Source: Zhongshania sp.
GTDB lineage: Bacteria > Pseudomonadota > Gammaproteobacteria > Pseudomonadales > Spongiibacteraceae
Length of the DNA: 64,000 nt
Assembly (NCBI RefSeq): GCF_047636175.1
Contig: NZ_JBLIKC010000018.1
Span: 14,481 to 78,480 of the forward strand
Direction of reading: 5' to 3'
In this document: positions 182-62,886 of the stretch, piece after piece
Numbering within the stretch: the stretch's first letter is position 1
Layout: every line of letters starts with the position of its first letter
Program-made: the position numbers and the translations under genes
Notes under the pieces: model-generated
Databases searched by the model: none
What the model was told of the DNA's origin: nothing
The model's input: only the letters and a program-made list of their open reading frames with translations

Positions 182-1333
182 TTAATCCGCTTGTTTAATC
201 ACACCCCCAGCTAAGAGCTGATCTATGTGATTTTGCTCTAACCCCAGAGACGCCAAGATTGACGCGGAATTTGCGCCTTCAGCGACGGGAGCATGTTGGA
301 TTTCACCTGGCGTACGCGAAAAACGTGGTGCGGGCGCCGATTGTAAGACATTGTCGCGACGAATAAGATTTTGCCTTGCCACATTATGCGGGAAAGTCTC
401 AGCTTCTTCCAAGTCCAGTATCGGCGCAACGCAGGCATCGCTACCGTCAAATAAGACTGTCCACTCGTCACGGGTTTTCTCTAAAAACCTCGCAGCCATT
501 TGCGCTCTACGGGCCGGCCATGCAGCCTTATCCATTTGCGAAAAATAATCACTGCCGCCAAAATCTAATTCGAGAATAGCCAGCATTTGAGTATAGAACT
601 GGGGCTCTATGGCGCCCACCGACATGGAGCGGCCATCTTTACACAAATAGCTTCGGTAAAATGGCGCGCCGCCATCTAGCATATTTTGCTCGCGCTCCAA
701 CTCCCAGAATTGAATACCCCTGAGGCCGTGAATGGTGCTCAACAGCGATACCGTGCCATCGCAGATTGCGGCATCAATAACCTGACCAACACCCGATTGT
801 TTTCTTTCTAATAATGCCGACAGCACGCCCAGCAATAAGAACATGGAGCCCCCACCAAGATCACCTATCACGTTTAACGGTGTCGGTGGCGCCTCGCCAG
901 CGCTGCCAAAACCGTCTAATAAACCGGTAATTGCGATGTAGTTGAGATCATGCCCTGCCCGCTTTGCCAGTGGCCCATGCTGTCCCCACCCGGTCATGCG
1001 ACCATAAATTAATGCCGTATTACGTTTGGCGCAGTCCTCTGGCCCCAGTCCTAGCTTTTCCATCACGCCGGGCCGGAAGCATTCTATTAATACATCGGCG
1101 GTTTCTACTAGCTGTAGAACCACCTCAACACCGGCGGGATTTTTAAGATCTACCGCAATCGACTTTCGGCCGCGCGCAGTAATGTCGCCGGGATGCGCGC
1201 CCAAGCCGCCGCCAGAAGTGCGATCTATGCGAATGACTTCTGCACCAAGGTCTGACAACAACATACAGGCATACGGCGCAGGACCTATGCCAGCCATTTC
1301 AATAATACGAAAACCTGTGAGTGGCCCGGACAT
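182..1333 (-). CDS. CaiB/BaiF family III CoA-transferase, alpha-methylacyl-CoA racemase-like
   Basis: N-terminal LTGFRIIEMAGIGPAPY, GHDLNY and LDGGAPFY motifs typical of the AMACR/Mcr branch. Confidence 0.85.
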   Translation of the reverse strand: MSGPLTGFRIIEMAGIGPAPYACMLLSDLGAEVIRIDRTSGGGLGAHPGDITARGRKSIAVDLKNPAGVEVVLQLVETADVLIECFRPGVMEKLGLGPEDCAKRNTALIYGRMTGWGQHGPLAKRAGHDLNYIAITGLLDGFGSAGEAPPTPLNVIGDLGGGSMFLLLGVLSALLERKQSGVGQVIDAAICDGTVSLLSTIHGLRGIQFWELEREQNMLDGGAPFYRSYLCKDGRSMSVGAIEPQFYTQMLAILELDFGGSDYFSQMDKAAWPARRAQMAARFLEKTRDEWTVLFDGSDACVAPILDLEEAETFPHNVARQNLIRRDNVLQSAPAPRFSRTPGEIQHAPVAEGANSASILASLGLEQNHIDQLLAGGVIKQAD

Positions 1334-1431
1334 TCATTTTCTCGCTATGTAAAAGGGTGTAACTGGAAGGGAACAGCACACAGCGCAGCGGCAATTCAAG
1401 ACATGGAATCGTCGCCGCACTGTAAAAAAGC

Positions 1432-2253
1432 TTAGCTGCCGGTAAAGACTGCAGGACGTTTTTCTTTAAAGGCGCGCATACCTTCTTTGGCGTCTTTAGA
1501 GCCAAAGACCGGACCAGCTAATTCATCAGATTTCTGCATGGCGTCGTCTTCAGCTAAATGTTCGGTGTGCTCACGCAGTGAACGCACCACCGCTTTAATC
1601 GCCAGCGGACCATTGGCACATATTTTTTCTGCCAGCTTCTTCGCTTCGTTCAAGGTTTCGCCCTTGGGAACAATACGGTTAATCAAGCCAAAATCTAGGG
1701 CCTGTTGGGCGGTGATATGTTCGCCTAACAGCAAAATTTCAGCGGCCAAACAGTAGGGAATTTGCTTGCGCAAGCGAATGGTCGAACCCGACATTGGGTA
1801 CAAGCCGCGCGCCACTTCGGTTACACCGAAAATAGCATCTTCGGCAGCAACACGAATATCGGTGCCCTGCAGCATCTCGGTGCCACCGGCAAGTGCATAG
1901 CCCTCTACAGCAAGCAGTAAAGGCTTGCAGGGACGGTTTTCCCGCAGTAGTGCCTGCCAATGGATATTGGGGACGGTGGCCATTAAATCCATAAATTCTT
2001 GGGTGCTGCCTTGGTCGCCATCGGGGCCGACTTTTAAGTCCATCCCGACGCAAAACGTATCGCCATTGGCGGTAAGGATGGCGCAATATAAACTGTCATC
2101 TTCGTCTAATAGACGCCACGCTTTATACAAACCCAGCAGCATTTCTGGATTAAATGCATTCTTAGCCTCGGGTCGATTTAGGGTGACAATTAAAACATTG
2201 CCTTCCTGTTCGATAAGGCAGGTTTTAGTACTGATGGCTAATTCAGTGGGCAT
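1432..2253 (-). CDS. echA19: enoyl-CoA hydratase (crotonase), EchA19-like
   Basis: Crotonase motifs FCVGMDLK, AGGTEMLQGTDIRVA, LYPMSGS; resembles recalled mycobacterial EchA19; follows the fadD19-like gene. Confidence 0.8.
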   Translation of the reverse strand: MPTELAISTKTCLIEQEGNVLIVTLNRPEAKNAFNPEMLLGLYKAWRLLDEDDSLYCAILTANGDTFCVGMDLKVGPDGDQGSTQEFMDLMATVPNIHWQALLRENRPCKPLLLAVEGYALAGGTEMLQGTDIRVAAEDAIFGVTEVARGLYPMSGSTIRLRKQIPYCLAAEILLLGEHITAQQALDFGLINRIVPKGETLNEAKKLAEKICANGPLAIKAVVRSLREHTEHLAEDDAMQKSDELAGPVFGSKDAKEGMRAFKEKRPAVFTGS

Positions 2254-2355
2254 TTTTGGGCTCCGTAAAATGTATTATTACTGCGTAGCAATAAGGGTAG
2301 CGACGCGGCACACAGCTCGGTTGCCATGATGCCCTGCCCCGCTACCATAATGTCT

Positions 2356-3987
2356 TTAGGCCGCAGCGCCTTTACCACTGTCGGCGTATGCCTTGGCGGT
2401 TTTATAATCTGGTTTACCACTTGGCGCACGGGGCAGCTCGTCTATCAAGTGAATTTCTCTAGGCACTTTGTAGCCAGCAATATGCTTGCGGCAGTGCTCT
2501 TGAATATTTTCTAGGCTTAATTGGGTTCCCTCGCGGGCCTGAATAACAGCGCTCACTCGACTGCCCCAGCGCTCATCATCAACGCCGACAACGAGGGCAT
2601 CAAATATTCCCTTGTGGGCTTTGAGTGCGTCTTCTACTTCTTCTGGGAAGATTTTTTCGCCGCCACTATTGATGCAATTAGAACCCCGTCCAAAAACGGT
2701 GATTGAGCCGTCATCTTCGAGCTTGGCGGCATCACCGGTTAGTAGCCACGTTTTATCTTCAACTTGAATAAAGGTTTTTGCGGTTTTTACAGGGTCGTTG
2801 TAATAACCATTGGGGATATACCCAGCGCGAGCAAAGATACCGGTTTCGCCTAGCTCTGCATGACGCCACGTGTCGCCCTCAAGGTTTATAAGCACATCCA
2901 TAAAATCTGTGCGGCTGACATTACCAAGGCCAGATGCGGTCTTTTTACTGCCATTATCCATACCCATTTGACCACCTTCGGACGAGCCGAAGCTGTTGGT
3001 GATAAAGACATTGGGGAAATGCATTTTAAAGGCTTCTTGCTTAGCTTCAGAGAAGATCGCACCGCCGGAACCAACATTAAATACCGCGCTTAAATCCCAG
3101 CGATCAATATTCGCGTCTAGGGCATCCAGCAGCGGAATAGCCATGGCGTCGCCAACAATTTGCACCGCGTTCACTTTCTCGTCTTGAACAACCTGCCAAA
3201 TCGCTTCGCCATTAAAAGAGCGCTGATGATTAAGGATTAAGGCATTGCCCGCCAATAGCTGAATACAGGCATACCACCATGACGCGCCGTGCATCAGTGG
3301 CGCCAGCGCAATACCGCGCAAGGCGTGTTCAGTAACGCGGCTGGCCATGTCTTCAGGCTTCTCACAGGCGCCTAGGGGTGAAAAGTGTCCACCGCCGCCC
3401 ATGGCTGCAAAAAATACATTCTTCTGTGGCCACATCACGCCTTTGGGCATGCCAGTGGTGCCACCGGTGTAGAGAATGAAATAATCATCCCCTGAGCGCT
3501 CACCGAAGTTGCGCTCTTTAGATTGGGCTTCTCGCACGGTGTGGTAATCCACTGCATCAATCGTCGCCAGCGGCTCTTCACTATGGTCGGCAACGGCAAC
3601 ACATAATTTCAGGGTCTTGGCGGCGCTGCGAACCTCAGCGATGGCCGGAATAAATTCGCGGTGATGGATACAGGCAACCATGTCCGCATTATCAAAAATA
3701 TATAACAACTCGTCTTTTACATAGCGATAGTTGACGTTGATTGGCACAGCCCGAATTTTAAAACAGGCGAGCATCGCTTCCAGATACTCATTGCAGTTAT
3801 ACATATACAGGCCGACGTGATCGCCAGCATTAACACCCTTAGACACCAGGTAATGGGCCATTTGATTGGCGCCGGCATCTAATTCCGCAAAGCTACAACG
3901 GCTCGCTCCGCAAACTAGCGCCTCGCGCTCTGGCACTTTGTCAGCAACAGCTTCAAATAAATCTGCGAGGTTAAATTGCATAGTCAT
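2356..3987 (-). CDS. fadD19: acyl-CoA synthetase, FadD19 (steroid-CoA ligase) family
   Basis: AMP-binding loop YTGGTTGMPKGVMW, NVNYRY, INSGGEKIFPEEVE; N-terminus (NLADLFEAVAD) resembles FadD19. Confidence 0.85.
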   Translation of the reverse strand: MTMQFNLADLFEAVADKVPEREALVCGASRCSFAELDAGANQMAHYLVSKGVNAGDHVGLYMYNCNEYLEAMLACFKIRAVPINVNYRYVKDELLYIFDNADMVACIHHREFIPAIAEVRSAAKTLKLCVAVADHSEEPLATIDAVDYHTVREAQSKERNFGERSGDDYFILYTGGTTGMPKGVMWPQKNVFFAAMGGGGHFSPLGACEKPEDMASRVTEHALRGIALAPLMHGASWWYACIQLLAGNALILNHQRSFNGEAIWQVVQDEKVNAVQIVGDAMAIPLLDALDANIDRWDLSAVFNVGSGGAIFSEAKQEAFKMHFPNVFITNSFGSSEGGQMGMDNGSKKTASGLGNVSRTDFMDVLINLEGDTWRHAELGETGIFARAGYIPNGYYNDPVKTAKTFIQVEDKTWLLTGDAAKLEDDGSITVFGRGSNCINSGGEKIFPEEVEDALKAHKGIFDALVVGVDDERWGSRVSAVIQAREGTQLSLENIQEHCRKHIAGYKVPREIHLIDELPRAPSGKPDYKTAKAYADSGKGAAA

Positions 3988-4175
3988 ATTCTCAATCCCT
4001 TATTATTTTCTGTGCGATATTCGTAAACTATTCTGTAAAAATTCCACACCGCTCGCAACGCTTGTATTGTTCAGCGCAGTACAAAGTATTCACAAATATA
4101 ACAACCGCCACCTAGCACCACCATCCCCCCAAGAGACGAGCCTAGGAGAAGAGCGCTAGATGGCGGCTTAGCGAA

Positions 4176-5339
4176 TTACGGCTTCTCTGAACTCACTACC
4201 CACATTGAGAAGAACTGCGCGCCACCGCCATAGGCATGTCCTAGCGCTGTTTTGGCGCCGTCTACCTGATGACCACCGGCTTCGCCACGGACCTGCTGCG
4301 CGGCTTCCGCAAAGCGAATCATACCTGATGCGCCAATGGGGTTAGAACATAGCACGCCACCGGAGCAATTCCAGGGAATGTCGCCGCCGTCGATCAAGGA
4401 GGTCGCACCCGCCATGGTCAATTCCCAGCCCTTACCGGGATCGGCAAAGCCAAGGTTTTCAAGCCACATTGGCTCGTACCAAGAAAACGGCACATAGACT
4501 TCAGCACAGTCAAAATCTTTACGTGGATTATGAATGCCAGCCTGCGCGTAAACATCTTTGGCGCAATCGATACCTGCCTGCGGATTTACTTGATTACGAC
4601 CTGCATACATCGTGGGTTCTGAGCGCATTGCCGCGCCGCGAATCCACGCCGGTTTACGAGGTGACTTAGCCGCCAGCTCTTCGTTGGCGATAACCATGGC
4701 ACAGGCACCATCAGACGAGGGACAGGCTTCTAAGAATCTCAGGGGCTCCCACAGCATTGGGCTGTCTTCAACTTCCTTGAGGGTAATATTTGGCAGCTGC
4801 AAATGCGCCAATGGGTTTCTAGAACCGTGCAAACGATCCTTAACTGCCACCTTGATACCCGCGTCGTAGGGTGCATCTGACCGACGCATATACTCGCGAA
4901 TAATCGGCGCGAAATAACCGCCCGCACCGGCATTTAAATGCGGTGAGAAAGGCTGGGGATTAGATAGCGCCCACATGGCATTCGACTCTGACTGTTTCTC
5001 ATAAGACACAGTCAAAATACGTTTAAACACCCCGCTTTGCACATACGATGCGGCAACGATGGCGGTAGAACCACCCACCGAACCCGCGGTGTGTACGCGC
5101 AACATCGGCTTGCCATTACAGCCCAGCGCGTCGGTTAAATACAATTCAGGCATAATCACGCCTTCAAACATATCCGGCGCCTTGCCAATAATGACCGCGT
5201 CGATGTCATCCCAACTTAAACCGGCGTCTTCAAGGGCATTAACCGCGGCTTCGCGCACCATGCCAGCAATGGAAACATCTTTGCGTTTGGTTTTATATTT
5301 TGTTTGGCCTACGCCAACAACAGCAGCTAACTGAGCCAT
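4176..5339 (-). CDS. ltp3: thiolase-fold protein, Ltp3-like (aldolase subunit)
   Basis: GKAPDMFEG, HTAGSVGGST (no thiolase catalytic Cys), EKQSESNAMWALS, GHAYGGG. Start moved to ATG 5339, which overlaps the upstream gene's TAA. Confidence 0.85.
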   Translation of the reverse strand: MAQLAAVVGVGQTKYKTKRKDVSIAGMVREAAVNALEDAGLSWDDIDAVIIGKAPDMFEGVIMPELYLTDALGCNGKPMLRVHTAGSVGGSTAIVAASYVQSGVFKRILTVSYEKQSESNAMWALSNPQPFSPHLNAGAGGYFAPIIREYMRRSDAPYDAGIKVAVKDRLHGSRNPLAHLQLPNITLKEVEDSPMLWEPLRFLEACPSSDGACAMVIANEELAAKSPRKPAWIRGAAMRSEPTMYAGRNQVNPQAGIDCAKDVYAQAGIHNPRKDFDCAEVYVPFSWYEPMWLENLGFADPGKGWELTMAGATSLIDGGDIPWNCSGGVLCSNPIGASGMIRFAEAAQQVRGEAGGHQVDGAKTALGHAYGGGAQFFSMWVVSSEKP

Positions 5340-6400
5340 TATTTTGCCTCCAGTACGGTAATCAGGTTTTGTTGCAAGCACGGACCTGATGTCGCGTGGG
5401 CAACACCGCGTTTTGCTTCGCCACGAATAATGCGCATGGCAACTTCACCAATACGCGACAAACCTGATGCCATCATCACGTTACCCGCCAACACACCACC
5501 GGATGGATTAATCACGGTGTTGTCATCCAAGCCCAAGGCCTTTTTAAGAATAATTTCTTGATGACTAAAGGGCGCATACAGCTCGGCAACATCAACCGGA
5601 CCATTTGCCACCCCCGCTGCCTTCGCGGCGATTTCTGTTGATACCGACCGGCTTAGATCACGCGAGCCAATGTGGTGGGTTTCAATACGGTGATCAATGC
5701 CCTTTATCACTGCATAGGGCTTGCCCCATTCCTTTGCTTTCTCGATGGTGCAGATAATCATGGCGCAGGCGCCATCTGAAATTGGGCAGCAATCATGACG
5801 ACGCAGTGGCGAAACATAGGTCGCTTCTTTCAATAAGTCAGCAGCGGTCTGATCGCCTTTTAACTGCGCGTAGGGATTATTCGCCAAGGCGTTATTTCTT
5901 GAGCGCGCCACGACCTCAGCCATATCGGTCTCGGTAATTTCGCCTGAGTCCAACATCGTTCTCGCCTGCATAGCAGCAAAGGCAATACTGTCTACCCACA
6001 GCGGTGCGAGGTAATACGGATCGAGTTGTTGAGACAGCACGATGGGGAGTTCACCCGGAGAAGATTTGCCAAAGCCGTATAATAACGCTGACTCAGCTTG
6101 CCCCATCTGGATTTTCAGCCAAGCTTCATAAAGCGCCCACGCTGCATCCATTTCCACATGTGATTCTTTAATCGGTGGCACTGCGCCCAAGGCGTCAACA
6201 CCGGCAACAAAGGCAAAGGCTGCGCCCTGCTGATAATCACAGCTACCAGAGCAAGTGAAGTCGACGTCTTGCGCGCTGCTAATTCCCGCTTGCTTAAATA
6301 CTTCACTGAGCACTGGCATGATCAGTTCTACTTCGTTTTGCGCGCCGGCATCTCGCTGGCAATTCGATTGCGCAAAGGCAACTATTGCAACATCACGCAT
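5339..6400 (-). CDS. ltp4: thiolase-fold protein, Ltp4-like (aldolase subunit)
   Basis: ESHVEMDAAWALYEA, YGFGKSS, AHATSGPCLQQNL match recalled Ltp4. Start moved to ATG 6400, just after the upstream stop. Confidence 0.85.
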   Translation of the reverse strand: MRDVAIVAFAQSNCQRDAGAQNEVELIMPVLSEVFKQAGISSAQDVDFTCSGSCDYQQGAAFAFVAGVDALGAVPPIKESHVEMDAAWALYEAWLKIQMGQAESALLYGFGKSSPGELPIVLSQQLDPYYLAPLWVDSIAFAAMQARTMLDSGEITETDMAEVVARSRNNALANNPYAQLKGDQTAADLLKEATYVSPLRRHDCCPISDGACAMIICTIEKAKEWGKPYAVIKGIDHRIETHHIGSRDLSRSVSTEIAAKAAGVANGPVDVAELYAPFSHQEIILKKALGLDDNTVINPSGGVLAGNVMMASGLSRIGEVAMRIIRGEAKRGVAHATSGPCLQQNLITVLEAK

Positions 6401-6401
6401 T

Positions 6402-7379
6402 TTATCGGCCCTCATCAATTAATTTACCAATCAGATCCACCGCCATATCCGGCTCGTCTATTGGCTTAAAGTACTGGATGTTTTCCATGGCAAAGCCCCA
6501 CTCTTCCTCAGGGCGCCAAAGCGCTTCTACTCGCATACCAATCCGCACGTCTTCGTTTTTACATTCGCTAAGCAAATGCAAGAAACTCAAGTTCGCGCCG
6601 TCTAAAACCAAATTGGCAATAACGTAGGGCGGCTTGATCGGGTTACCTGGAATGGGAATGTAAACAATAGTAAAGGACTCAACTGTGGCCTTGTTGCCTA
6701 AGGTCACTTGCTCTTCGGTCGGTACGCCACACGCCGCGCACGAACCACGGGGTGGGATATAAACATTGCGGCATTTTGGACAGCGCTGACCGACCAATTT
6801 GCCTTCTTTCATTGAACGCAAATAGAGTGAGGTCGCTTTACCTGCGGTGAAGTTATAGGTTAGGTAGCTTGGCGATTCGACACCGATAATAGGCTCATCA
6901 GAAGCCGCCGGTTTCAGCTCAGTCAGGAGCGCAACGGACTCGGGAACAAAGCCGTTAAGATCATCCATGACGCCCTTAGTCTCTGCGGCCCAACGCGCTT
7001 TGACACGCATACCAGTAGTCACCGCCGCTTCGTCACCTGCGTCTAGCCAATGCAGCATTGGGGTATCGGCGCCGTCCAGCAAAATCATTGCCCAGGCGAA
7101 TGGCTTATCACTGGGATGGGCTTTGCGGGGCTCTTTAACCCAGCACCAAGTCTTGACCACACCGCTGTCAGCAACATCGACAAATTCGGTTAATGCGGCA
7201 GCGCTCACCGGATCAAATTCCACCGGCGGCATTAGCACTTTGCCATCGCTGGCTTTAATGCCAACCATTTTGCGTGCGCGCAAGGAGGTCAAAAACTGAC
7301 CCACAATAGGTCCAGTGGACCGTGTATAGGTATAGCCCAGCGTAAAGGCTTGGCTAAGAGTTTCAGCCGATGACGACAT
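6402..7379 (-). CDS. tandem DUF35 Zn-ribbon/OB-fold protein (Rv3521-like)
   Basis: Two OB-fold repeats (PFAWAMILLDGAD; PYVIANLVLDGAN); second repeat has CPKC..CAAC; first gene of the ltp4-ltp3 operon. Confidence 0.85.
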   Translation of the reverse strand: MSSSAETLSQAFTLGYTYTRSTGPIVGQFLTSLRARKMVGIKASDGKVLMPPVEFDPVSAAALTEFVDVADSGVVKTWCWVKEPRKAHPSDKPFAWAMILLDGADTPMLHWLDAGDEAAVTTGMRVKARWAAETKGVMDDLNGFVPESVALLTELKPAASDEPIIGVESPSYLTYNFTAGKATSLYLRSMKEGKLVGQRCPKCRNVYIPPRGSCAACGVPTEEQVTLGNKATVESFTIVYIPIPGNPIKPPYVIANLVLDGANLSFLHLLSECKNEDVRIGMRVEALWRPEEEWGFAMENIQYFKPIDEPDMAVDLIGKLIDEGR

Positions 7380-12098: not shown

Positions 12099-12503
12099 AT
12101 GGCCGACAGAACTTACGGTATTTCAGATCTGGCATCGGAATTTGACGTCACCACGCGCACGATCCGTTTTTATGAGGAAAAGGGCCTGCTTAATCCCCTG
12201 CGCGACGGGCAAACTCGAATTTACAGCGCCGCCGATCGCATTAAACTTAAATTAATTTTGCGCGGTAAACGCTTGGGCTTATCCCTGGAAGATAGTAAAA
12301 GCATCATTGAGATGTATCATCCCGAGCACGACAACAGCCCACAGCTTATTAAACTTATCGACAAGATACGTGAGCGCCGCCGACTATTAAAAGAACAACT
12401 CAAGCAGCAGCTACAAGACTTGCAAGATATGATCTATGAATTAGACCAAGCCGAAAATCGCTGCCAAGACGCCTTGAATGAAATAAATAAAACGAACCAC
12501 TAA
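12099..12503 (+). CDS. liuR: MerR family regulator LiuR
   Basis: MerR HTH ([24 protein letters not shown]); [11 protein letters not shown]; first gene before liuA. Confidence 0.9.
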
Positions 12504-12538
12504 ATATAGTAATCACGGATTATCCAGAGGAAAATACT

Positions 12539-13708
12539 ATGAGCACTTCCTACCCTACTTTGAACTTTGGCCTCGGTGAAGAAGTTGAGATGTTGCGCGA
12601 TGCCGCCCAGCAATTTGCCCAGAAAGAAATTGCCCCCCGCGCGGAGAGCATCGACAAAGACAATGAGTTTCCCATGGACCTCTGGCGCAAAATGGGCGAC
12701 ATGGGCTTGCTCGGCATCACTGTCTCAGAAGAGTATGGCGGCAGCAATATGGGCTATCTGGCCCATGTTATTGCCATGGAAGAAATCAGCCGCGCTTCCG
12801 CGTCGGTGGGCCTTTCTTACGGCGCTCACTCCAATTTGTGCGTAAACCAACTCTTCAAGAATGGCACTGACGCCCAGCGCGAAAAATATCTGCCCAAACT
12901 CTGTTCAGGCGAACATATTGGCGCACTGGCCATGTCAGAACCCAATGCCGGCTCGGATGTTGTCAGCATGAAACTTAAAGCCGAAAAAGACGGTGACCAC
13001 TATGTGCTTAACGGCAATAAAATGTGGATCACCAATGGCCCCGATGCCCACACCTATATCATCTACGCAAAAACTGATATCCACGGCGGCTCACGCGGCA
13101 TTACCGCATTTATTGTCGAACGCGACTACCCCGGCTTTAGCCGCTCACCTAAATTAGACAAGCTCGGCATGCGTGGCTCCAACACCTGCGAGCTGGTGTT
13201 TGAAAACTGTAAAGTGCCAGCGGCAAATATTTTGGGCGCGGAAGGCGGCGGCGTAAATGTATTAATGAGCGGCTTAGATTTTGAACGCACGGTGCTATCT
13301 GGCGGGCCAACAGGCATTATGCAAGCCTGCCTCGACGTGGTGATCCCCTATCTTCACGACCGCAAACAATTCGGACAGAGCATTGGCGAGTTTCAATTGA
13401 TGCAAGGCAAATTGGCAGACATGTACACCGAATTGAATGCCAGTCGCGCCTATCTTTATACCGTCGCCAAAGCCTGTGATCGCGGTGAGGCCAGTCGTAA
13501 AGATGCGGCCGCTGTCATTTTGTATACTGCCGAGCGCGCCACCCAAATGGCACTACAAGCGATTCAAGCTCTGGGCGGTAATGGCTACACCAATGAATAT
13601 CCAACGGGCCGCTTACTGCGCGACGCCAAGCTTTATGAGATCGGCGCTGGCACCTCAGAAATTAGACGCATGTTGATTGGTCGTGAGCTCTTTAAAGAAA
13701 CGATGTAA
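12539..13708 (+). CDS. liuA: isovaleryl-CoA dehydrogenase
   Basis: [41 protein letters not shown]. Confidence 0.95.
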
Positions 13709-13759
13709 CACACTCGCTTATAAAAATTAATCCTAAGAAATACCATAGGCACCGCGACA

Positions 13760-15367
13760 ATGACTGTACTGACATCGACTATTAATCCACGCGACCCAAG
13801 CTTTATTGAAAACGCCGAACACATGCAAGCGCAAGTCGACGACTTAAAGCAGCTAGTCGCTAACATTAATCAAGGCGGTGGCGAAAAGTCACAGCGGCGT
13901 CATCAAGACAAGGGCAAGCTACTGCCCCGCGAGCGAATCAGCGCGCTAGTAGATGTGGGTGCCCCCTTTTTAGAGCTATCGCAACTGGCCGCCTATAAAG
14001 TCTATGACGAAGAAATCGCCGCTGCGGGCTTAATCACCGGCATCGGACGGGTCTGCGGTCAAGAGTGCATGATCATTGTTAATGACGCCACGGTGAAAGG
14101 CGGAAGTTACTTTCCGCTAACGGTAAAGAAACATTTACGCGCGCAAAATATCGCCCAAGAAAATCATTTGCCCTGTATTTACTTAGTCGATTCCGGCGGC
14201 GCCAATCTGCCCCGTCAAGACGAAGTGTTTCCAGATCGCGAGCACTTTGGTCGAATATTCTTCAATCAGGCAAATATGTCTGCAATGGGTATTCCGCAAA
14301 TCGCAGTGGTCATGGGTAGCTGCACCGCAGGCGGCGCTTACGTCCCGGCTATGGCGGACGAATCTATTATTGTCAAAGAGCAAGGCACGATTTTTCTGGC
14401 CGGCCCGCCATTGGTTAAGGCCGCCACCGGTGAAGTGGTTAGCGCGGAAGCCCTGGGCGGTGCAGATGTGCATTGCAAAGTGTCTGGCGTTGCCGACCAC
14501 TACGCCCAAAATGATCATCATGCTTTGCAAATAGCGCGCAATGCGGTAAAACGCTTGAATCGTTGCAAACCGATATCTATGGATATTAGCCCCAGCGTCG
14601 AGCCGGCTTTTTCACCCCAAGAAATTTACGGCGTGGTTCCCAAAGACAGCCGCAAACCCTACGATGTGAGAGAAGTGATTGCGCGGATTGTCGATGGCTC
14701 CGACTTCGACGAATTCAAAGCCCTATTTGGCACGAGCTTGGTATGTGGCTTTGCCCGCATCTTTGGCTATCCGGTGGGCATTGTGGCCAACAACGGTATT
14801 CTGTTTTCAGAGTCGGCACAAAAAGGCGCGCACTTTATTGAGCTGTGTGCGCAACGCAAAATTCCGCTGATCTTTTTACAAAATATCACCGGGTTTATGG
14901 TTGGCCAGCAATACGAATCTGGCGGCATTGCCAAGCACGGCGCCAAAATGGTGACTGCCGTTGCCTGCGCACAAGTACCTAAACTCACAGTATTGATTGG
15001 TGGCTCGTTCGGCGCAGGGAACTACGGGATGTGCGGCCGCGCTTACGACCCGCGCTTTATGTTTATGTGGCCTAATGCCCGCATCTCGGTTATGGGTGGC
15101 GAGCAAGCCGCTGGCGTGATGGCGCAAATCAAACGCGACCAGTATGAGCGCGAAAATAAAGATTGGCCAAGTGACGAAGAGCAGGCCTTTAAGCAACCTA
15201 TTCTCGACACCTACGAGGAACAGGGTCACCCCTACTTTGCATCAGCCAGACTGTGGGACGACGGTGTTATCGATCCTGCCGATACGCGCATGGTGCTGGG
15301 CTTAAGCCTGTCAGCCAGTTTGAACAAGCCCATAGCAGACACTAAATTTGGTGTCTTTAGAATGTAA
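13760..15367 (+). CDS. liuB: 3-methylcrotonyl-CoA carboxylase, carboxyltransferase subunit
   Basis: [40 protein letters not shown]; operon context. Confidence 0.95.
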
Positions 15368-15446
15368 GCCAAGCCCTAATTAATACACTAAATGCCGCCG
15401 TGATCGCTACGCCAAACGCGGGTAATAATATCCAGGAAATAAAATA

Positions 15447-17456
15447 ATGTTCGACAAAATTTTAATCGCAAACCGTGGTGAAATTGCCTGCCGAGTTATT
15501 AAGACGGCGCGTGAACTGGATATTCTAACCGTTGCTGTTTACAGTGACGCCGACCGCAGTGCGCTGCACGTCAGTATGGCTGACGAAGCCGTCTATATTG
15601 GCGCGTCGCCGGCTAGAGAATCCTATTTAGATGTTAATAAAATTATCGACGCAGCAAAAATAAGCGGCGCCCAAGCTATTCATCCCGGTTACGGTTTCCT
15701 ATCTGAAAACGCCGAGTTTTGTCGCCGCTGCGCAGCCGAGAATATCGTTTTTATTGGTCCGCCAACCAGCGCAATAGTGGCGATGGGATCGAAATCTGCC
15801 GCCAAAGACATTATGGGAAAAGCCGGCGTACCCCTGGTTCCCGGTTATCATGGCGCCGACCAGAATCCAGAAATCATTCGCCAGGCGGCTAATGATATGG
15901 GCTACCCGGTATTGCTAAAAGCCACCGCCGGGGGCGGCGGTAAGGGTATGCGACAAGTGTGGAGCGCCGAAGAGTTCGACAGCGCCCTGCAGGCCGCAAA
16001 GCGCGAAGCCCTTAATGGCTTCGGCGACGATACGATGTTGGTAGAAAAGTATCTTACCCAGCCACGCCACATCGAAATTCAAGTTTTCTGCGACAGCCAC
16101 GGCAACGCTGTTTATCTGTTTGAGCGCGACTGCTCTATTCAGCGCCGCCATCAAAAGGTCATTGAAGAAGCGCCCGCGCCGGGCTTAAGTTCGGCACTGC
16201 GTAGTGAAATGGGTAATGCCGCGGTATGCGCCGCGCAAGCCATAGACTACGTTGGCGCCGGCACCGTTGAATTTTTATTAGATAGCGACGGTAGTTTCTA
16301 TTTTATGGAAATGAATACCCGCTTACAGGTTGAGCACCCGGTCACTGAAATGATCACTGGCCTCGATCTAGTCGACTGGCAGCTCCGCGTTGCCGCGGGC
16401 GGTGTATTGCCACTGAAGCAAGATGAACTGCAAATTCGCGGTCATGCCATAGAAGCGCGAATCTATGCAGAAGATCCCGACAATGAGTTTTTGCCGCAAA
16501 CAGGCACCCTCCACTTTTTAGAAACCCCGTCTGAATCCGCCCACGTTCGCATTGATACCGGTGTGCGTGAAACCGATGAGGTAAGTGTGTTTTACGACCC
16601 GATGATTGCCAAGCTCATCGTCTGGGATGAAGACCGCGACGCCGCGCTGCGTCGCCTAAGTAGCGCACTTAAACAATACCGTATCAGCGGCGTGATCAAT
16701 AATATTGATTTTCTGCACACCCTCAGTCGTCATCCGGCCTTTGTTGCTGCCGATTTCGACACCGGTTTTATCGGCAAGCACGAAGCCAGTTTAATCGGCA
16801 TCGCCCAGCCCCAAAATCCCAGTAGCATAGCCCTCGCCGCCTTGTATTTAGTGCTGGCACAAAAGCAGCGCATCCAAGAATTTGCGCAAGCCAGTGGCGA
16901 AGCAAATTCGCCCTGGAACAATCCCCACAACTGGCGCCCCAACCAAGCCGCAGAACATCGCTTTACACTCAAAAGTGGCGACGATCTGCATACGGTAGCA
17001 GTGACCGCCCAGTCGAGCGCCATGGATTCTGCCTTTTTGATTCACTGCAATGACACCGCCTACACCGCAAGTGGCGAGCTAGCCGGCCGAGTAATGAAAG
17101 CAGATATAAATGGCCGCAAACTCACCGCCACCATTTCTGCTCATGGCGGCAGTTATAGCCTATTCAGTGCAGAGCCAACCCTGCACTTCGCTATTCACGG
17201 ACCGGACTTGGGTGACAACAGCAATGACGCCGGTGAAGATCAATTAGTCGCTCCCATGAACGGCACCGTGGTGAGCCACTTAGTAGAGACCAGCAGCAGC
17301 GTTGTCAAGGGCACTCCGCTGATGATTATGGAGGCCATGAAAATGGAGCACACCATTCGCGCACCCGCAGATGGCATCGTCAAGGCCTTCTATTTTCAGG
17401 CCGGCGAGCTAGTCAGCGGCGGTGCTGAGTTAATTCAATTTGAGCGAGCTGAATAA
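15447..17456 (+). CDS. liuD: 3-methylcrotonyl-CoA carboxylase, biotin carboxylase/biotin carrier subunit
   Basis: ILIANRGEIA, HPGYGFLSEN, MNTRLQVEH, C-terminal EAMKM biotinylation site. Confidence 0.92.
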   Translation: MFDKILIANRGEIACRVIKTARELDILTVAVYSDADRSALHVSMADEAVYIGASPARESYLDVNKIIDAAKISGAQAIHPGYGFLSENAEFCRRCAAENIVFIGPPTSAIVAMGSKSAAKDIMGKAGVPLVPGYHGADQNPEIIRQAANDMGYPVLLKATAGGGGKGMRQVWSAEEFDSALQAAKREALNGFGDDTMLVEKYLTQPRHIEIQVFCDSHGNAVYLFERDCSIQRRHQKVIEEAPAPGLSSALRSEMGNAAVCAAQAIDYVGAGTVEFLLDSDGSFYFMEMNTRLQVEHPVTEMITGLDLVDWQLRVAAGGVLPLKQDELQIRGHAIEARIYAEDPDNEFLPQTGTLHFLETPSESAHVRIDTGVRETDEVSVFYDPMIAKLIVWDEDRDAALRRLSSALKQYRISGVINNIDFLHTLSRHPAFVAADFDTGFIGKHEASLIGIAQPQNPSSIALAALYLVLAQKQRIQEFAQASGEANSPWNNPHNWRPNQAAEHRFTLKSGDDLHTVAVTAQSSAMDSAFLIHCNDTAYTASGELAGRVMKADINGRKLTATISAHGGSYSLFSAEPTLHFAIHGPDLGDNSNDAGEDQLVAPMNGTVVSHLVETSSSVVKGTPLMIMEAMKMEHTIRAPADGIVKAFYFQAGELVSGGAELIQFERAE

Positions 17457-17458
17457 TC

Positions 17459-18325
17459 ATGGCAAAGATATTCCCAAACAGAGCACGCATCGTCGAGGTA
17501 GGCCCACGAGATGGCCTCCAAAATGAAAAGCAGCCTATCGATATCGACACCCGTGTGCAGCTCATCAATAAACTTGCCGACGCCGGTCTTAGCTATATCG
17601 AAGTAGGCAGTTTTGTCAGCCCGAAGTGGGTGCCGCAAATGGCCGGTAGCGACCAAGTGTTTGCCGGTATAGAGCGCAAGCAAGATGTTCACTATATTGC
17701 CCTGACTCCCAATCTGCGCGGTTATGAGCAAGCGGTTCTTGCCGGTGCTAGCGAAGTGGCGATTTTCACCACCGCCTCTGAGGCCTTTGCCCAGAAAAAT
17801 ACCAATTGCTCCATCGCAGAAAACCTTGAACGGTTCACGCCGATTATTGCAAAAGCCAAAGCACAGGGAATGCCGGTACGCGGCTATATTTCCTGTATTG
17901 CGGGCTGCCCATACGAGGGTGATATTCCACCAGAAGCAGTTGCGCAGCTCGCCGTTAAATTAATTGAGATGGGCTGCTACGAAATTTCACTGGGCGACAC
18001 CATCGGCAGCGGTACCCCAGAGCAAATCACCGCTATCTTAAAGGTGGTATTGCAACACGTCCCAGCCGACAAACTTGCGGTGCACTTTCACGACACCAAT
18101 GGCCGCGCATTAGAAAATATTCGCGTGGCACTGCAGTCAGGCATTACCGTGATTGATAGCGCGATAGGCGGATTGGGTGGCTGCCCCTACGCCGAAGGCG
18201 CCTCAGGTAATGTGGCAACCGAGTCAGTCATCGGCTTATTGGATGAACTCAATATTGCCCACGGCATTAATCTTCCCAAGCTTTTACAAGCAAGTGCATT
18301 TATTACTCAGGCACTAAAGAGCTAA
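17459..18325 (+). CDS. liuE: hydroxymethylglutaryl-CoA lyase
   Basis: EVGPRDGLQNE, HFHDT, GLGGCPYAEGASGNVATE. Confidence 0.92.
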   Translation: MAKIFPNRARIVEVGPRDGLQNEKQPIDIDTRVQLINKLADAGLSYIEVGSFVSPKWVPQMAGSDQVFAGIERKQDVHYIALTPNLRGYEQAVLAGASEVAIFTTASEAFAQKNTNCSIAENLERFTPIIAKAKAQGMPVRGYISCIAGCPYEGDIPPEAVAQLAVKLIEMGCYEISLGDTIGSGTPEQITAILKVVLQHVPADKLAVHFHDTNGRALENIRVALQSGITVIDSAIGGLGGCPYAEGASGNVATESVIGLLDELNIAHGINLPKLLQASAFITQALKS

Positions 18326-18391
18326 GAAAGGAACAACAACCAGTGTGTAACGCTGGACACATTATCAGGTCTTAGCGCTAGGAAAAAAATA

Positions 18392-20344
<1,953 letters not shown>

Positions 20345-20419: not shown

Positions 20420-21613
20420 TTAGTCAACAAAACGCTTTCGGTATTCCGCAAATTGTTGCTTTAAGCCTTCTTCGGTTAAACCAAACTGCTCGAGGGTATA
20501 TTCATGGCCGGGACGACTGTCACGGCGGTTATCTTCCTGATGTTTTTCCATGGCGGCACGAGCGGTATCGGTAAGGTCCATGCCAATAAAATCATAGACT
20601 TTCTTTACCGACGACAGCGGGTCGACCACGGTGTCTTTATACCACACGTCCAAAAATGCCTGCGGCTGTTGATCACGAATTTTTAGCGTGTGTAATGTGC
20701 CGCGCGCATATTTTGCAGCCCACTGCTCGCCAACTACTTTTCCATCTACCTTATCGCTGCACATAATCCATAGGTTGTAATTCATACTCGCAGCAGAGGG
20801 AATGGTCTGCAGCGGGTCGCGGTGAGTCTGAACAATTTTAGCGTCTGGAAATATCTTTAACAAAGTCGCGATATGGTGGATATGATGTGGCGTTTTTAAC
20901 AGCCAGCGCTCGGCCACTTGGCTTGTTTGTTTTTTCTGCCACTGCAAAAATTGTAATAGGCGTTTCAGGTATTGATAAGCCGGTGTATTGTCGTGTTCAT
21001 CGTTCCATTTGCCATAGGTTGGCACATTGCAAAAAGCATCGGGTACGGTGCTATAAAAACTGTGCTCCAGTAGCAGTATATCTTCATCAGCAGCCACCGG
21101 GTCCATGGGATGAATAGCTGCAATTTCTGGGTTTGCCGCTAACATGGCGGCCACTTCAGCCTCAGCAGAAGTAATGCGTGCATCCTTACCTTTAAAGTCC
21201 CACTCTAATTCCGGTGCGGGGTTGCGCACTTCATACCACAGCGGTGCGTAAAAGCGTTTATCCGCAGCGAGTATTCGATGAAAGAACGTCGAACCCGTTC
21301 GCTGCAATCCAATAATCACGACCGGAGCAGTAATTTCTTCGTCAAGAATCTCTGGGTGTTTATCAATCCACCCCTCTACTCGCAGACGATTAATTAGAAT
21401 ATTGAGAATACGCTGGTACTGACCAAAACGGCCGCCGGGATTTAAATTGGCCTCTTCGTTTAATGACTTGATCAAGATGTCCAGGGGCTCACGAAAAGAT
21501 TCATCACCAAAATCAGTTAGGCCGGTGGCATCCATGGCCGCTGCCAATAAGGTGGTCGCTGTTAAATCAACCTCGGGAATAGCAAAGTCTGTGCTCTGTT
21601 GTTCTGTGCTCAA
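20420..21613 (-). CDS. sulfotransferase family protein
   Basis: PAPS-binding-like GLQRTGSTF, WLLKTPHH, HRDP; TTG start with AAGGAG upstream. Confidence 0.85.
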   Translation of the reverse strand: MSTEQQSTDFAIPEVDLTATTLLAAAMDATGLTDFGDESFREPLDILIKSLNEEANLNPGGRFGQYQRILNILINRLRVEGWIDKHPEILDEEITAPVVIIGLQRTGSTFFHRILAADKRFYAPLWYEVRNPAPELEWDFKGKDARITSAEAEVAAMLAANPEIAAIHPMDPVAADEDILLLEHSFYSTVPDAFCNVPTYGKWNDEHDNTPAYQYLKRLLQFLQWQKKQTSQVAERWLLKTPHHIHHIATLLKIFPDAKIVQTHRDPLQTIPSAASMNYNLWIMCSDKVDGKVVGEQWAAKYARGTLHTLKIRDQQPQAFLDVWYKDTVVDPLSSVKKVYDFIGMDLTDTARAAMEKHQEDNRRDSRPGHEYTLEQFGLTEEGLKQQFAEYRKRFVD

Positions 21614-21626
21614 GATCGTCTCTCCT

Positions 21627-22754
21627 TTATTGGGCCAATAGCTGCGCTAGGTCTGCCAGTTTCACCACTTTGCAGCGGGGGTGCACAATACGGTCTGCAC
21701 CAATCCACCGAAAAGCCATGGTGCCCTCGCGATGGCCAGTAGTGTCTAGCCAGTTTTCGCAGCCCGGGTCTTTAGCAGACACCACAATACGCACACCACC
21801 ATCACCGCGATATTTCGCGGTGTGCTTGTTAACATGAATCTGCACGTAGCGGTATTCAAGCGATTCCATCCAGTAATTATTCAACTGAAAATTCCAGTTG
21901 TCGCACTGCGGTATATCATCAGCTTCAATCAGCAGCGCTTCATCATCTGCCAAGTTAAAATAGCCGTGGTAATAATAAATATTGGGATCGCCACCAAGCT
22001 TTTGACAGTATTCCTGATCCGCCGCTGGCAAGGTATTGGGGTGTTCCTTAAAGCCCTGCGCCCAGTCGGCAAACAAGGTTGCGGTGCCTTTCACAAAGGC
22101 GGCGGTGTTGGCTAAATCTGCTTTTAATTTTGGCCCGGCAAGCGCTGCGGGTTTACTATCTCCCATATCGAGACGGCTAATAGTAAGGTCGGCGAAGATC
22201 TCGGTAGATCGATCCAAATAGGTTTCACGCACTAACACCGCCACGGTGTCATCGGTTATTTTCAGCCAATTACCGGTCTGCGGGGTTTGCGACAGAATCA
22301 CATCAATGCTGCCGTCGGCGTTTACCTCTAAGCCGCTGTGGGTATCAATGGCACTGACCGAGCGCATATTGCCGTCGGCCTCCTCGTAGCCACCGGCAAT
22401 GGCAATAAAGCCAAGATAGGCAACGGTACCCCGCGTACCGCTAATGCGATAATCATGTCTGCCATTGATCTCGGCGCGCAGATAATAGTTGTCGGGGTTG
22501 TCGGCACCAATTTTCGCGGTTTCATGAGAGGGTCGGTAAAAGCTGGGGAAATCGCGGTCACTGCACTCCATAAACATATCAAGGGCAATGCGAGTTAGTC
22601 GGGTGAGATAGCGCCAACCCTCGGCGCGGTTCAATTCATCAGCGGGCGCTTCTGGACGGATGATCTGCTGGCCAGCGGCCTTGAGCTCATCGCAAAACGC
22701 CTCCCATGCATCAATGTCGACGAGGGGATTTGGGGTTTCTGCTGCCATTGTCAT
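21627..22754 (-). CDS. DUF1214-domain protein (Rv3531c-like)
   Basis: KIGADNPDNYY, WNFQLNNYWMESLEY, DPGCENWLDTTGH; 13 nt upstream of the sulfotransferase. Confidence 0.75.
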   Translation of the reverse strand: MTMAAETPNPLVDIDAWEAFCDELKAAGQQIIRPEAPADELNRAEGWRYLTRLTRIALDMFMECSDRDFPSFYRPSHETAKIGADNPDNYYLRAEINGRHDYRISGTRGTVAYLGFIAIAGGYEEADGNMRSVSAIDTHSGLEVNADGSIDVILSQTPQTGNWLKITDDTVAVLVRETYLDRSTEIFADLTISRLDMGDSKPAALAGPKLKADLANTAAFVKGTATLFADWAQGFKEHPNTLPAADQEYCQKLGGDPNIYYYHGYFNLADDEALLIEADDIPQCDNWNFQLNNYWMESLEYRYVQIHVNKHTAKYRGDGGVRIVVSAKDPGCENWLDTTGHREGTMAFRWIGADRIVHPRCKVVKLADLAQLLAQ

Positions 22755-22851
22755 ACTCCTATTATTATCGTCAGTATTCTGACTTAACAGCAGTATCGAC
22801 GCATCACCCAGACAGATGACGCGGGTTTGGCCTTAAAATCGAGGGGGAAAT

Positions 22852-62855: not shown

Positions 62856-62886
62856 GATCTAATCCTCTATATCGTAGTGCGCAAAA

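Follow-up and report, generated by a model that had tools for sequence, protein, structure and literature searches.

A sulfotransferase-DUF1214 gene pair of Zhongshania belongs to a cassette shared by Gammaproteobacteria and Mycobacteriales that may carry out an undescribed sulfation step in steroid breakdown

We analysed a 64,000-nucleotide stretch of Zhongshania DNA (the window), which carries two neighbouring genes on its minus strand. The upstream gene (21627-22754) is an open reading frame of 375 aa that matched the Pfam family DUF1214 (PF06742) with 41.8 bits, the cut-off being 25. The downstream gene (20420-21613) has a TTG start and encodes a 397-aa protein of the Stf1 family, which matched Sulfotransfer_3 (PF13469) with 133.7 bits (cut-off 27) over profile positions 1-216 of 216. 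The initial annotation had described a co-oriented pair 13 nt apart, and the list of open reading frames bore this out. The spacer (21614-21626, minus strand) reads AGGAGAGACGATC and contains AGGAGA, a good ribosome-binding site ahead of the sulfotransferase TTG start, which implies that the genes are co-transcribed, probably with coupled translation. For the DUF1214 gene, the spacing of an AGGAG sequence suggests that translation probably starts at the second ATG (22748); the resulting 373 aa is also the length of the closest homologues.

The stop codon of a SpoU-type methylase gene and the DUF1214 start are separated by 97 nt (22755-22851, minus strand), within which we found the palindrome GTCAG-AATA-CTGAC at 22770-22783. 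This region may be a candidate promoter/operator of the pair's own. A scan of 22755-22851 for the sigma-70 consensus gave no strong match, and consensus promoter and terminator scans around the pair yielded nothing informative.

The P-loop of the sulfotransferase family, GLxRTG(S/T)T, is present in the window enzyme as G102-L-Q-R105-T-G-S-T109. When 24 sequences were aligned, including three mycobacterial Stf1 orthologues, G102, L103, R105, T106, G107 and T109 were found to be invariant, as were the 3'-phosphate motif H264-R265 with the S273 that follows it and, upstream of that motif, K240 and H244. Judging by their spacing, the latter two residues may be equivalent to K106 and H108 of cytosolic sulfotransferases. 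The PAPS-binding motifs that had been read from the single sequence are thus kept across the homologues, and as far as its residues tell, the window enzyme holds everything needed for PAPS binding and transfer; it is predicted to be PAPS-dependent and cytoplasmic. Sulfation and desulfation had both been put forward for the pair. The intact PAPS motifs, together with the linked PAPS genes described below, favour sulfation over desulfation.

Two structures, PDB 2ZQ5 and 2Z6V, which we take to be Stf1 of Mycobacterium tuberculosis and Stf9 of M. avium, matched the window sulfotransferase over its full length (E 1.2e-46 and 1e-41, respectively). They have the P-loop, Lys/His and 3'-phosphate residues in common with it, although overall identity is a mere 33%. 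The 2ZQ5 sequence was 86-91% identical to Mycobacterium orthologues, which fits an origin in the M. tuberculosis complex. Stf1 is the name of Rv3529c (PMC8882603).

The DUF1214 protein consists of two beta-sandwich domains and a helical bundle; by inspection it is a predicted cytoplasmic protein without a signal peptide. Its conserved motifs are SHETAKIGADNPDNYY, GGDPNIYYYH and WNxQxNNYWMESLxYR, and the KIGADNPDNYY noticed in the initial annotation was found at residues 81-91. An alignment of the family contained invariant columns, with the highest conservation in the polar and acidic motifs DNPD, GGDP and ESLxYR. The closest structure was PDB 6ANS (E 7e-132, about 55-60% identity). An AF2 model (pLDDT 89.8) submitted to Foldseek matched 6ANS with TM 0.83, followed by the DUF1254/DUF1214 proteins 3U07, 2P3Y and 3VB9, so that, as modelled, the protein has the two-sandwich fold of the solved DUF1214 members of the 6ANS type. 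6ANS itself, from Burkholderia cenocepacia (SSGCID, 2017), belongs to the same family; it is a structural-genomics deposit of a putative uncharacterised protein for which neither function nor ligand was reported, and a literature search on it found no paper. No enzyme of known function was matched by the model in Foldseek, and beyond 6ANS and the DUF1254/DUF1214 structures the fold matches were weak (jelly-roll/cupin-like and SIDT, TM <0.21). Because the fold matches no enzyme of known function, a catalytic role for the DUF1214 protein would be purely conjectural. phmmer also aligned residues 133-171 with designed beta-trefoils, which we took to be a compositional artefact.

We then asked how firmly the two genes are held together. 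Of the 40 fetched loci, which cover about 28 genera, 37 had a sulfotransferase gene within 3 kb of the DUF1214 gene when ORFs were chosen by homology, and so did 28 of the 30 best loci. Both gene orders occurred, with the sulfotransferase first in 10 loci. Paralogous pairs showed the same adjacency, and some genomes held 6 to 21 copies (G204, G205 and G359). Distances in the DUF1214 and sulfotransferase trees were correlated (Mantel r 0.59, a value reached by 0/2000 permutations). The pair is a near-obligate unit. We also looked for fused sulfotransferase-DUF1214 proteins among three long ORFs (L149, L151 and L135), but these gave DUF1214 matches only and were rejected as fusions, their excess length being due to start-codon overcalls.

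Near-obligate adjacency and correlated trees are what one would see if the DUF1214 protein were a non-catalytic subunit that binds the hydrophobic acceptor, as the initial annotation had suggested for the substrate, and presents it to the sulfotransferase, with the sulfate ester as the end product of the pair, and two beta-sandwiches without known catalytic relatives would suit such a role. However, DNPD, GGDP and ESLxYR suggest an active or ion-binding site more than a greasy pocket. Furthermore, DUF1214 proteins that are ~50% identical pair with sulfotransferases of two clades, with 31-34% identity between the groups. We regard a subunit of this kind as quite unlikely.

The two genes had been annotated as a two-protein module. 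The pair is indeed conserved, but it is part of a larger unit that includes an SDR resembling Rv3530c and is tied to PAPS-synthesis genes. Within the genus, the SDR profile coincided with that of the pair, being present in 24/24 genomes with the pair and absent from 4/4 without it. In congeners, the pair is flanked by conserved ACAD, 4HBT thioesterase and SpoU genes upstream and by LysR, cysC, sat and SDR genes downstream; congener G304, for example, has the order DUF-ST-LysR-cysC-sat-SDR. Pieces of the cassette that lie side by side in congeners and in Mycobacteriales are spread over three contigs in this genome, with the pair on C18, LysR-cysC-sat at C33:13866-16862 and the SDR, which is the best match to Rv3530c-like proteins in this genome (37% identity, E 2.5e-50), at C1:1138-1926. 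All 78 mycobacterial loci with enough flank had the order DUF-SDR-ST, as did 10/10 other Mycobacteriales loci, whereas in the window the DUF1214 and sulfotransferase genes abut and the SDR lies on another contig. The core of the cassette, a sulfotransferase and a DUF1214 protein, occurs repeatedly in both Gammaproteobacteria and Mycobacteriales.

The cassette usually lies beside genes for PAPS synthesis, either sat and cysC or cysD and cysNC, and APS kinase and ATP sulfurylase genes are conserved neighbours of the pair family. A one-strand DUF-ST-cysC string was found in two families (f265 and f256), at least 18 genomes of the genus and family had cysC at a distance of 2-3 kb from the pair, and a cysC domain was encoded 3-4 kb away at 9/10 non-Mycobacterium Mycobacteriales loci; here, physical linkage alone was counted as evidence. 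The idea that sat and cysC form a dedicated PAPS supply was rejected. Since cysC is single-copy and kept in congeners without the pair, and cysD is missing from the genome, sat and cysC are probably housekeeping genes.

Clusters for sulfated metabolites are typically linked to PAPS genes, and the cassette might accordingly make a stable sulfated lipid for the envelope or for signalling, in which case its link with steroid degraders would be indirect, through lifestyle or precursors. The characterised bacterial sulfotransferases of this kind, Stf0 and Stf3, are biosynthetic. In M. tuberculosis, Stf3 (Rv2267c) acts with Cyp128, an oxygenase encoded next door, to produce sulfomenaquinone (S881). 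Compared by description only, this system would resemble the window enzyme in using a eukaryote-like bacterial sulfotransferase on a hydroxylated isoprenoid lipid; it is biosynthetic and, unlike the window pair, has no DUF1214 partner. The genes stf0-stf3 are listed in PMC3141025. Against a biosynthetic role, no transporter, acyltransferase or lipid-biosynthesis gene was found among the conserved neighbours. Besides SRPBCC genes, the frequent neighbours of the family are SnoaL_4, SDR, KshA-like, KstD-like, ACAD and TonB-receptor genes, which are catabolic in type. We therefore consider the making of a stable sulfated lipid rather unlikely, and the mycobacterial data given below also speak against it.

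By the initial annotation's own test, a pair just as frequent where steroid genes are missing would speak against its reading. We found instead that the presence of the pair follows kshA, which encodes the oxygenase that opens the steroid ring, in two phyla. In the window's gammaproteobacterial order, 44 genomes had the pair and KshA, 18 the pair only and 14 KshA only, while 225 had neither (odds ratio 39, p 4e-26; odds ratio 56 when counted by genus), and in Mycobacteriales 38 had the pair and KshA, 2 the pair only, 13 KshA only and 148 neither (odds ratio 216, p 2e-27); these statistics were collapsed to genus at most and otherwise ignore kinship. The four congeners without the pair were exactly those without strong KshA.

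The co-occurrence with KshA could reflect a shared lipid-degrader lifestyle. KshA was absent from 18 of the 62 pair-bearing genomes of the order (29%), including the whole of one family (f254), so the cassette is not restricted to degraders of 9,10-seco steroids. These KshA-negative genomes count in favour of the sulfated-lipid alternative, and equally of the view that the cassette handles other hydrophobic alcohols, such as alkane-derived secondary alcohols, terpenoids or hopanoids, the correlation with KshA being a by-product of oil or lipid degradation. The genomes with 6 to 21 copies likewise suggest broad substrate families, and the window pair adjoins genes for the catabolism of leucine rather than of sterols. 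Set against this are the repetition of the KshA association in an independent phylum, with the odds ratio of 216, and the mycobacterial regulation and phenotype described below. Of all the readings considered, substrates other than steroids seem to us the least probable.

The pair had been placed near homologues of ltp3, ltp4, fadD19 and fadE26-27, and these genes are in the window, but the linkage is not conserved and the neighbours in congeners differ. Genes for ltp3/ltp4, a ChsH2-like protein, fadD19 and an echA19-like protein occupy 182-7379, 13 kb from the pair; the unrelated stretch in between holds a DUF454 gene, a TetR-P450 pair and the complete liu leucine operon. The fadE26/27-like genes (61719-63969) are about 39 kb away. 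kshA is on contig C25 and not on the pair's contig, and in this genome the pair lies outside any steroid island, which weighs against a role in sterol catabolism.

An association with KshA specifically would also fit detoxification, in which the sulfotransferase would conjugate xenobiotics or toxic intermediates of phenolic or hydroxylated type, the conjugate being left to the partner and the SDR. One such substrate could be 3-HSA, the phenol produced by KstD and KshA, and phenols are common substrates of sulfotransferases. KshA-like oxygenase genes often adjoin family members (G532:C308, G611:C36, G333:C208, G335:C69, G332:C60, L148 and, in mycobacteria, kshA itself). However, no exporter is conserved beside the pair, 3-HSA is already removed by HsaAB and HsaC in these genomes, and the SDR would have no obvious role on a phenol. 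Detoxification thus appears very unlikely.

We next compared the pair with the Rv3531c-Rv3530c-Rv3529c operon, using mycobacterial loci reached through the 2ZQ5 sequence. The initial annotation held that the window pair mirrors Rv3531c/Rv3529c. This is right in so far as the proteins are true, full-length homologues, the DUF1214 protein being 31% identical (E 4e-34) to the Rv3531c orthologue of Mycobacterium szulgai and the sulfotransferase 33% identical (E 8e-57) to its Rv3529c (Stf1) orthologue. They are distant homologues, however, and not orthologues. In the DUF1214 tree, the window protein fell inside a gammaproteobacterial core clade of 39 members, with the Rv3531c-like proteins outside (SH-aLRT 96), and in the sulfotransferase tree Stf1 was nested in clade B and the window enzyme in clade A. 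Since the two pairs occupy different subclades in both trees, they are not orthologous. The operon nevertheless consists of the same three protein families as the DUF1214 protein, SDR and sulfotransferase of this genome and, like the gammaproteobacterial cassette, it co-occurs with kshA and, in Mycobacteriales other than Mycobacterium, is linked to PAPS genes.

Published data bear on the role of this operon. A KstR operator upstream of Rv3531c was bound by KstR in EMSA (PMC1995591). Rv3531c is needed on cholesterol, with a TnSeq cholesterol/glycerol ratio of 0.28 (p 1e-4), and Rv3530c and Rv3529c are absent from the list of genes needed on cholesterol (PMC3182942 supplement). That TnSeq names Rv3531c but neither of the other two argues for a role of the DUF1214 protein of its own, which counts against a non-catalytic subunit, and fits a protein whose step follows that of the sulfotransferase and acts on an intermediate that would otherwise be a dead end. 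Control by a catabolic repressor, together with a requirement specific to cholesterol, weighs both against the biosynthesis of a sulfated lipid and against non-steroid substrates. An exact search of the genome contigs for the published KstR EMSA oligonucleotide (Rv3531c/Rv3532 intergenic region) found no match. The pair had been said to have no assigned reaction, and our literature search likewise gave none; neither 6ANS/2ZQ5 nor the combination of DUF1214 and sulfotransferase led to relevant papers in it.

We propose that the cassette acts on a steroid-type intermediate by reducing it, sulfating it and acting on the ester, with the sulfate most likely a leaving group, and consider the chances of this to be about evenly balanced. 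The target would be a hydrophobic intermediate of steroid type in sterol catabolism, at one of its hydroxyl or keto groups. The SDR would set the alcohol, the sulfotransferase would spend PAPS to turn it into a sulfate ester, and the DUF1214-fold protein would then act on or with that ester. The sulfate would most likely serve as leaving group, and its elimination or substitution would remove a hydroxyl that is refractory to ordinary beta-oxidation-type chemistry. The cassette may therefore represent an undescribed sulfation step within steroid breakdown. A more specific claim, which we think unlikely, is that the DUF1214 protein is a new type of enzyme that expels sulfate by elimination or rearrangement, and that SDR, sulfotransferase and DUF1214 protein form an unrecognised "reduce, sulfate, expel" step common to Mycobacteriales (Rv3531c-Rv3529c) and marine Gammaproteobacteria. 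As a separate consideration, PAPS is a costly reagent for a bulk catabolic step, which counts against the proposed sulfation.

Sulfate is used as a leaving group in the KR-ST-TE modules of CurM and OLS, where a terminal alkene is formed, and Sterolibacterium denitrificans activates 25-hydroxysteroids with ATP and dehydrates them. By analogy, these systems might share with the cassette the logic of reducing, activating the hydroxyl and eliminating, and an SDR, a sulfotransferase and a third protein would parallel KR-ST-TE; we claim no homology. The CurM/OLS sulfotransferase is housed in a PKS with an ACP and a thioesterase, whereas no such domain was found in or next to the window pair. Neither the thioesterases of CurM/OLS nor the kinase/dehydratase of S. 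denitrificans are related to the DUF1214 fold.

If sulfation or sulfate leaving-group chemistry does belong to steroid breakdown, it would give a function to the DUF1214 fold, for which there are three deposited structures, none explained, an acceptor to Stf1, and a new reaction type to bacterial steroid metabolism. Few genes in the KstR cholesterol regulon of M. tuberculosis lack an assigned reaction, Rv3531c, Rv3530c and Rv3529c being three of them, and the presence of the same cassette in harmless marine sterol degraders that can be cultured, such as Zhongshania, makes its function testable outside a pathogen. Cholesterol supports the growth of Zhongshania isolates (bioRxiv 10.1101/775916).

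A PAPS-type sulfotransferase, a partner of DUF1214 fold and a Rv3530c-like SDR form a cassette that is linked to PAPS-synthesis genes and that, in each of two phyla, is associated with steroid degraders. In the window, open reading frames for the DUF1214 protein (375 aa; 21627-22754, minus strand; Pfam DUF1214, 41.8 bits against a cut-off of 25) and the sulfotransferase (397 aa, TTG start; 20420-21613, minus strand; Pfam Sulfotransfer_3, 133.7 bits, cut-off 27) were both found, as the initial annotation had them: co-oriented and 13 nt apart. The ribosome-binding site reads as correctly distanced across the spacer, AGGAGAGACGATC. The annotated ATG of the DUF1214 gene (22754) sits 1 nt from AGGAG. 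The second ATG (22748) is probably the true start, since it is normally spaced and gives 373 aa, as in the closest homologues. The palindrome GTCAG-AATA-CTGAC (22770-22783), just 5' of the DUF1214 ribosome-binding site, may be an operator. NCBIfam gave no model for either protein, and no signal peptide was seen in either by inspection.

Both families are large (>2000 matches each), and many of their best matches share contigs. Whole-genome searches showed that a sulfotransferase gene adjoins the DUF1214 gene in orthologous and paralogous copies. We fetched regions of 4-20 kb around 40 DUF1214 matches (about 28 genera). In 37 of them a sulfotransferase gene lay no more than 3 kb away, in almost every case on the DUF1214 strand, and 28 of the 30 best loci likewise had one. 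Gene order varied, with the sulfotransferase first in 10 loci. Distances in the two protein trees were correlated (Mantel r 0.59, reached by 0 of 2000 permutations). DUF1214 proteins of about 50% identity were partnered with sulfotransferases of either clade A or clade B, suggesting that conservation lies with the partner and variation with the sulfotransferase. Family expansion in G204 (6.2 Mb; 21 sulfotransferase and 6 DUF1214 matches), G205 (a single contig of 1.7 Mb; 6 and 6) and G359 (18 DUF1214 matches) suggests that some marine Gammaproteobacteria hold many acceptor-specific versions of the pair. The window's genome has a second, very divergent pair (contig C23, 35333-37913), in which a 389-aa sulfotransferase-like frame lies directly upstream of a 481-aa DUF1214-like one, with a NAD-dependent epimerase-like gene next and a divergent TetR gene.

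The two genes had been proposed as a two-protein module; they are indeed a conserved unit, but of a larger cassette with the SDR and linked PAPS genes. Recurrent neighbours, clustered and annotated, were APS kinase, ATP sulfurylase, two SDR groups, SRPBCC (Polyketide_cyc2) and SnoaL_4 proteins, TonB-dependent receptors, KshA-like Rieske oxygenases and Zn-dependent alcohol dehydrogenases. Two congeners (G304 and G326) carry ACAD, 4HBT, SpoU, DUF1214, sulfotransferase, LysR (opposite strand), cysC and sat genes, followed by the SDR in G304 only. In families f265 and f256 cysC directly follows the sulfotransferase on the same strand, Solimonas fluminis has the string APS kinase, TetR, DUF1214, sulfotransferase, SDR, DUF1214, and one Pseudomonas has cysD near the pair. 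Among Mycobacteriales, the DUF1214-SDR-sulfotransferase trio was present in 10/10 loci (52-61% identical to the protein of M. szulgai), with a cysC domain 3-4 kb off on the opposite strand in 9/10.

In the window's genome the cassette is split across contigs. Of the genes that flank the pair in congeners, LysR-cysC-sat are on C33 (13866-16862) and the SDR is on C1 (1138-1926; 78% identical to that of G304). The latter was by far the best match in this genome to the mycobacterial Rv3530c-like SDR (37% identity, E 2.5e-50; next 1e-25), and within the genus it is present in 24/24 genomes with the pair and absent from 4/4 without. The rearrangement is common to the closest relatives (e.g. G306), in which the acetoacetyl-CoA synthetase gene is likewise convergent with that for the sulfotransferase. 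As cysC is single-copy and kept in the four congeners lacking the pair, and the window's genome has no cysD, sat and cysC are probably housekeeping sulfate-activation genes; the PAPS-gene evidence is their linkage to the pair, not mere presence.

We aligned 24 sulfotransferases, three of them mycobacterial. G102, L103, R105, T106, G107 and T109 of the 5'-phosphosulfate loop were invariant, as were E177, K240, H244, several C-terminal residues, and H264 and R265 with S273 eight residues further. This R...S spacing is that of the 3'-phosphate motif in cytosolic sulfotransferases. The window enzyme thus looks active from its residues, and of the two activities initially offered, sulfation or desulfation, the invariant motifs together with the PAPS-gene linkage favour sulfation. 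A biosynthetic alternative is that the cassette makes a sulfolipid.

The AF2 model of the DUF1214 partner is confident (pLDDT 89.8) and has an N-terminal helical pair and two beta-sandwiches with a long helix between them. Its top Foldseek match, of the same fold, was PDB 6ANS (TM 0.83, 55% identity), itself an uncharacterised Burkholderia cenocepacia protein, followed by the DUF1254/DUF1214 proteins VPA0106 and VPA0735 of Vibrio parahaemolyticus; no Foldseek match was of known function. The Pfam DUF1214 model (112 positions) aligns to the first sandwich of some family members and to the second of others, which indicates that the ~370-aa proteins are an internal duplication of a DUF1214 unit, partly covered by Pfam. 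Invariant residues, mostly polar, were S76, T79, K81, D85, P87, D88, N89 and Y91; G254, G255 and D256; N288, Q290, N293, E297, S298, Y301 and R302; and R349 and W350. A rival view would make this partner a pure carrier.

The pair had also been likened to Rv3531c/Rv3529c. The window sulfotransferase matched PDB 2ZQ5 (384 aa; E 1.2e-46) and 2Z6V (E 1e-41) over their full length; we take these to be Stf1 and the Stf9 of M. avium, respectively. Stf1 is Rv3529c (PMC8882603). Orthologues from other Mycobacterium species stood in for the M. tuberculosis genes; the 2ZQ5 sequence found 80 Mycobacterium loci (86-91% identity). In M. szulgai, hsaG/hsaF are followed by a PPE gene, the genes for a 379-aa protein and a 260-aa SDR, and the Stf1 orthologue, with kshA next on the other strand, in agreement with the published Rv3531c-Rv3530c-Rv3529c layout. 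All 78 mycobacterial loci whose flanks were long enough retained the trio, and 76 of 80 had kshA nearby. The initial premise, that the mycobacterial pair lies in the cholesterol region with no assigned reaction, was borne out: in EMSA, KstR binds an operator between Rv3531c and Rv3532 (PMC1995591), and the operon's genes are entered as hypothetical in a cholesterol-gene review (PMC6429209).

Homology held across both families: the DUF1214 protein was 31% identical over 356 residues to the 379-aa protein of M. szulgai (E 4e-34) and the sulfotransferase 33% to the Stf1 orthologue (E 8e-57). Orthology did not. The window DUF1214 protein falls inside a 39-member gammaproteobacterial clade (SH-aLRT 96), with Rv3531c-like proteins outside on a long branch. 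Of the two large sulfotransferase clades, the window enzyme is in A and Stf1 is nested in B, beside gammaproteobacterial enzymes partnered with core-clade DUF1214 proteins. These separate positions indicate that the window pair is a distant paralogue of the mycobacterial one or a very ancient relative; the window instance is a split, paralogous member of the cassette. The SDR lies between the two genes in the mycobacterial operon, whereas in the window the pair genes abut. The mycobacterial Rv3531c orthologue gave no match at all in Pfam; that of M. szulgai matches the C23 and window copies with similar strength (E 1e-31 and 5e-29, respectively).

We used Pfam KshA_C (PF19298), for the steroid ring-opening oxygenase, as the marker of 9,10-seco steroid degradation. 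Among 301 genomes evenly drawn from the window's order, a close homologue of the DUF1214 protein was present in 62 (E <= 1e-60) and a strong KshA in 58 (E <= 1e-45): both 44, pair only 18, KshA only 14, neither 225 (odds ratio 39, Fisher p 4e-26). Kinship was handled by genus collapse alone, which gave 23, 5, 8 and 98 (odds ratio 56, p 1e-14). For the Rv3531c-like protein in 201 Mycobacteriales genomes the counts were 38, 2, 13 and 148 (odds ratio 216, p 2e-27). The pair is therefore not equally frequent without steroid genes, and the proposed steroid link stands. Within the genus Zhongshania, isolates of which grow on cholesterol (bioRxiv 10.1101/775916), the four genomes without the pair are exactly the four without strong KshA. 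The association is incomplete, one whole family (f254) having the pair without KshA; a competing reading has a non-steroid lipid alcohol as substrate. Family members adjoin KshA-like oxygenases in G532:C308, G611:C36, G333:C208, G335:C69, G332:C60 and locus L148. At the last four, DUF1214 paralogues of ~30% identity are directly beside KshA-like Rieske oxygenase genes, of which L148 (G205:C1:783701-803700) has four in a row. Detoxification of phenolic secosteroids is a further alternative.

The genes that Griffin et al. list from TnSeq as required for growth on cholesterol include Rv3531c (ratio 0.28, p 1e-4), much as for fadD19 and cyp125, but neither Rv3530c nor Rv3529c (PMC3182942 supplement; categories PMC6429209). 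On one reading, which we infer, partner loss would be harmful as the sulfotransferase product dead-ends, and sulfotransferase loss would bypass the step. The SDR would provide or remove an alcohol, the sulfotransferase would esterify it, and the DUF1214 partner would act on the sulfate ester. This last step would probably be sulfate leaving-group chemistry, by analogy, with no homology claimed, to the KR-ST-TE modules carried by CurM and OLS and to the way Sterolibacterium activates 25-hydroxysteroids with ATP. In the library searched, no paper connects DUF1214 to a sulfotransferase, and only three name DUF1214. This analysis adds a quantified association with KshA in both phyla, a phylogenetic profile for the SDR, linkage to PAPS genes across phyla, the finding that the window and mycobacterial pairs are not orthologous, and the asymmetry in the TnSeq data.

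Sterol genes are present in the window, as had been noted, but not close to the pair. Genes for a CoA-transferase III, an enoyl-CoA hydratase, an acyl-CoA ligase, one ChsH2-like protein and two thiolase-like proteins of Ltp type (182-7379) are 13 kb away, the fadE26/27-like genes ~39 kb away, and the strong kshA is on a separate contig (C25); the pair is therefore outside any steroid island in this genome. On its 5' side are SpoU-type methylase and 4HBT thioesterase genes on the same strand, then a divergent acyl-CoA dehydrogenase gene. From the left, a liu operon converges on it (12099-20344): a MerR-type regulator (liuR), liuA, liuB, liuD and liuE, for isovaleryl-CoA dehydrogenase, two methylcrotonyl-CoA carboxylase subunits and HMG-CoA lyase, then acetoacetyl-CoA synthetase. 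This leucine/isovalerate catabolic operon is complete and ordinary, and stands between the pair and the sterol side-chain genes.
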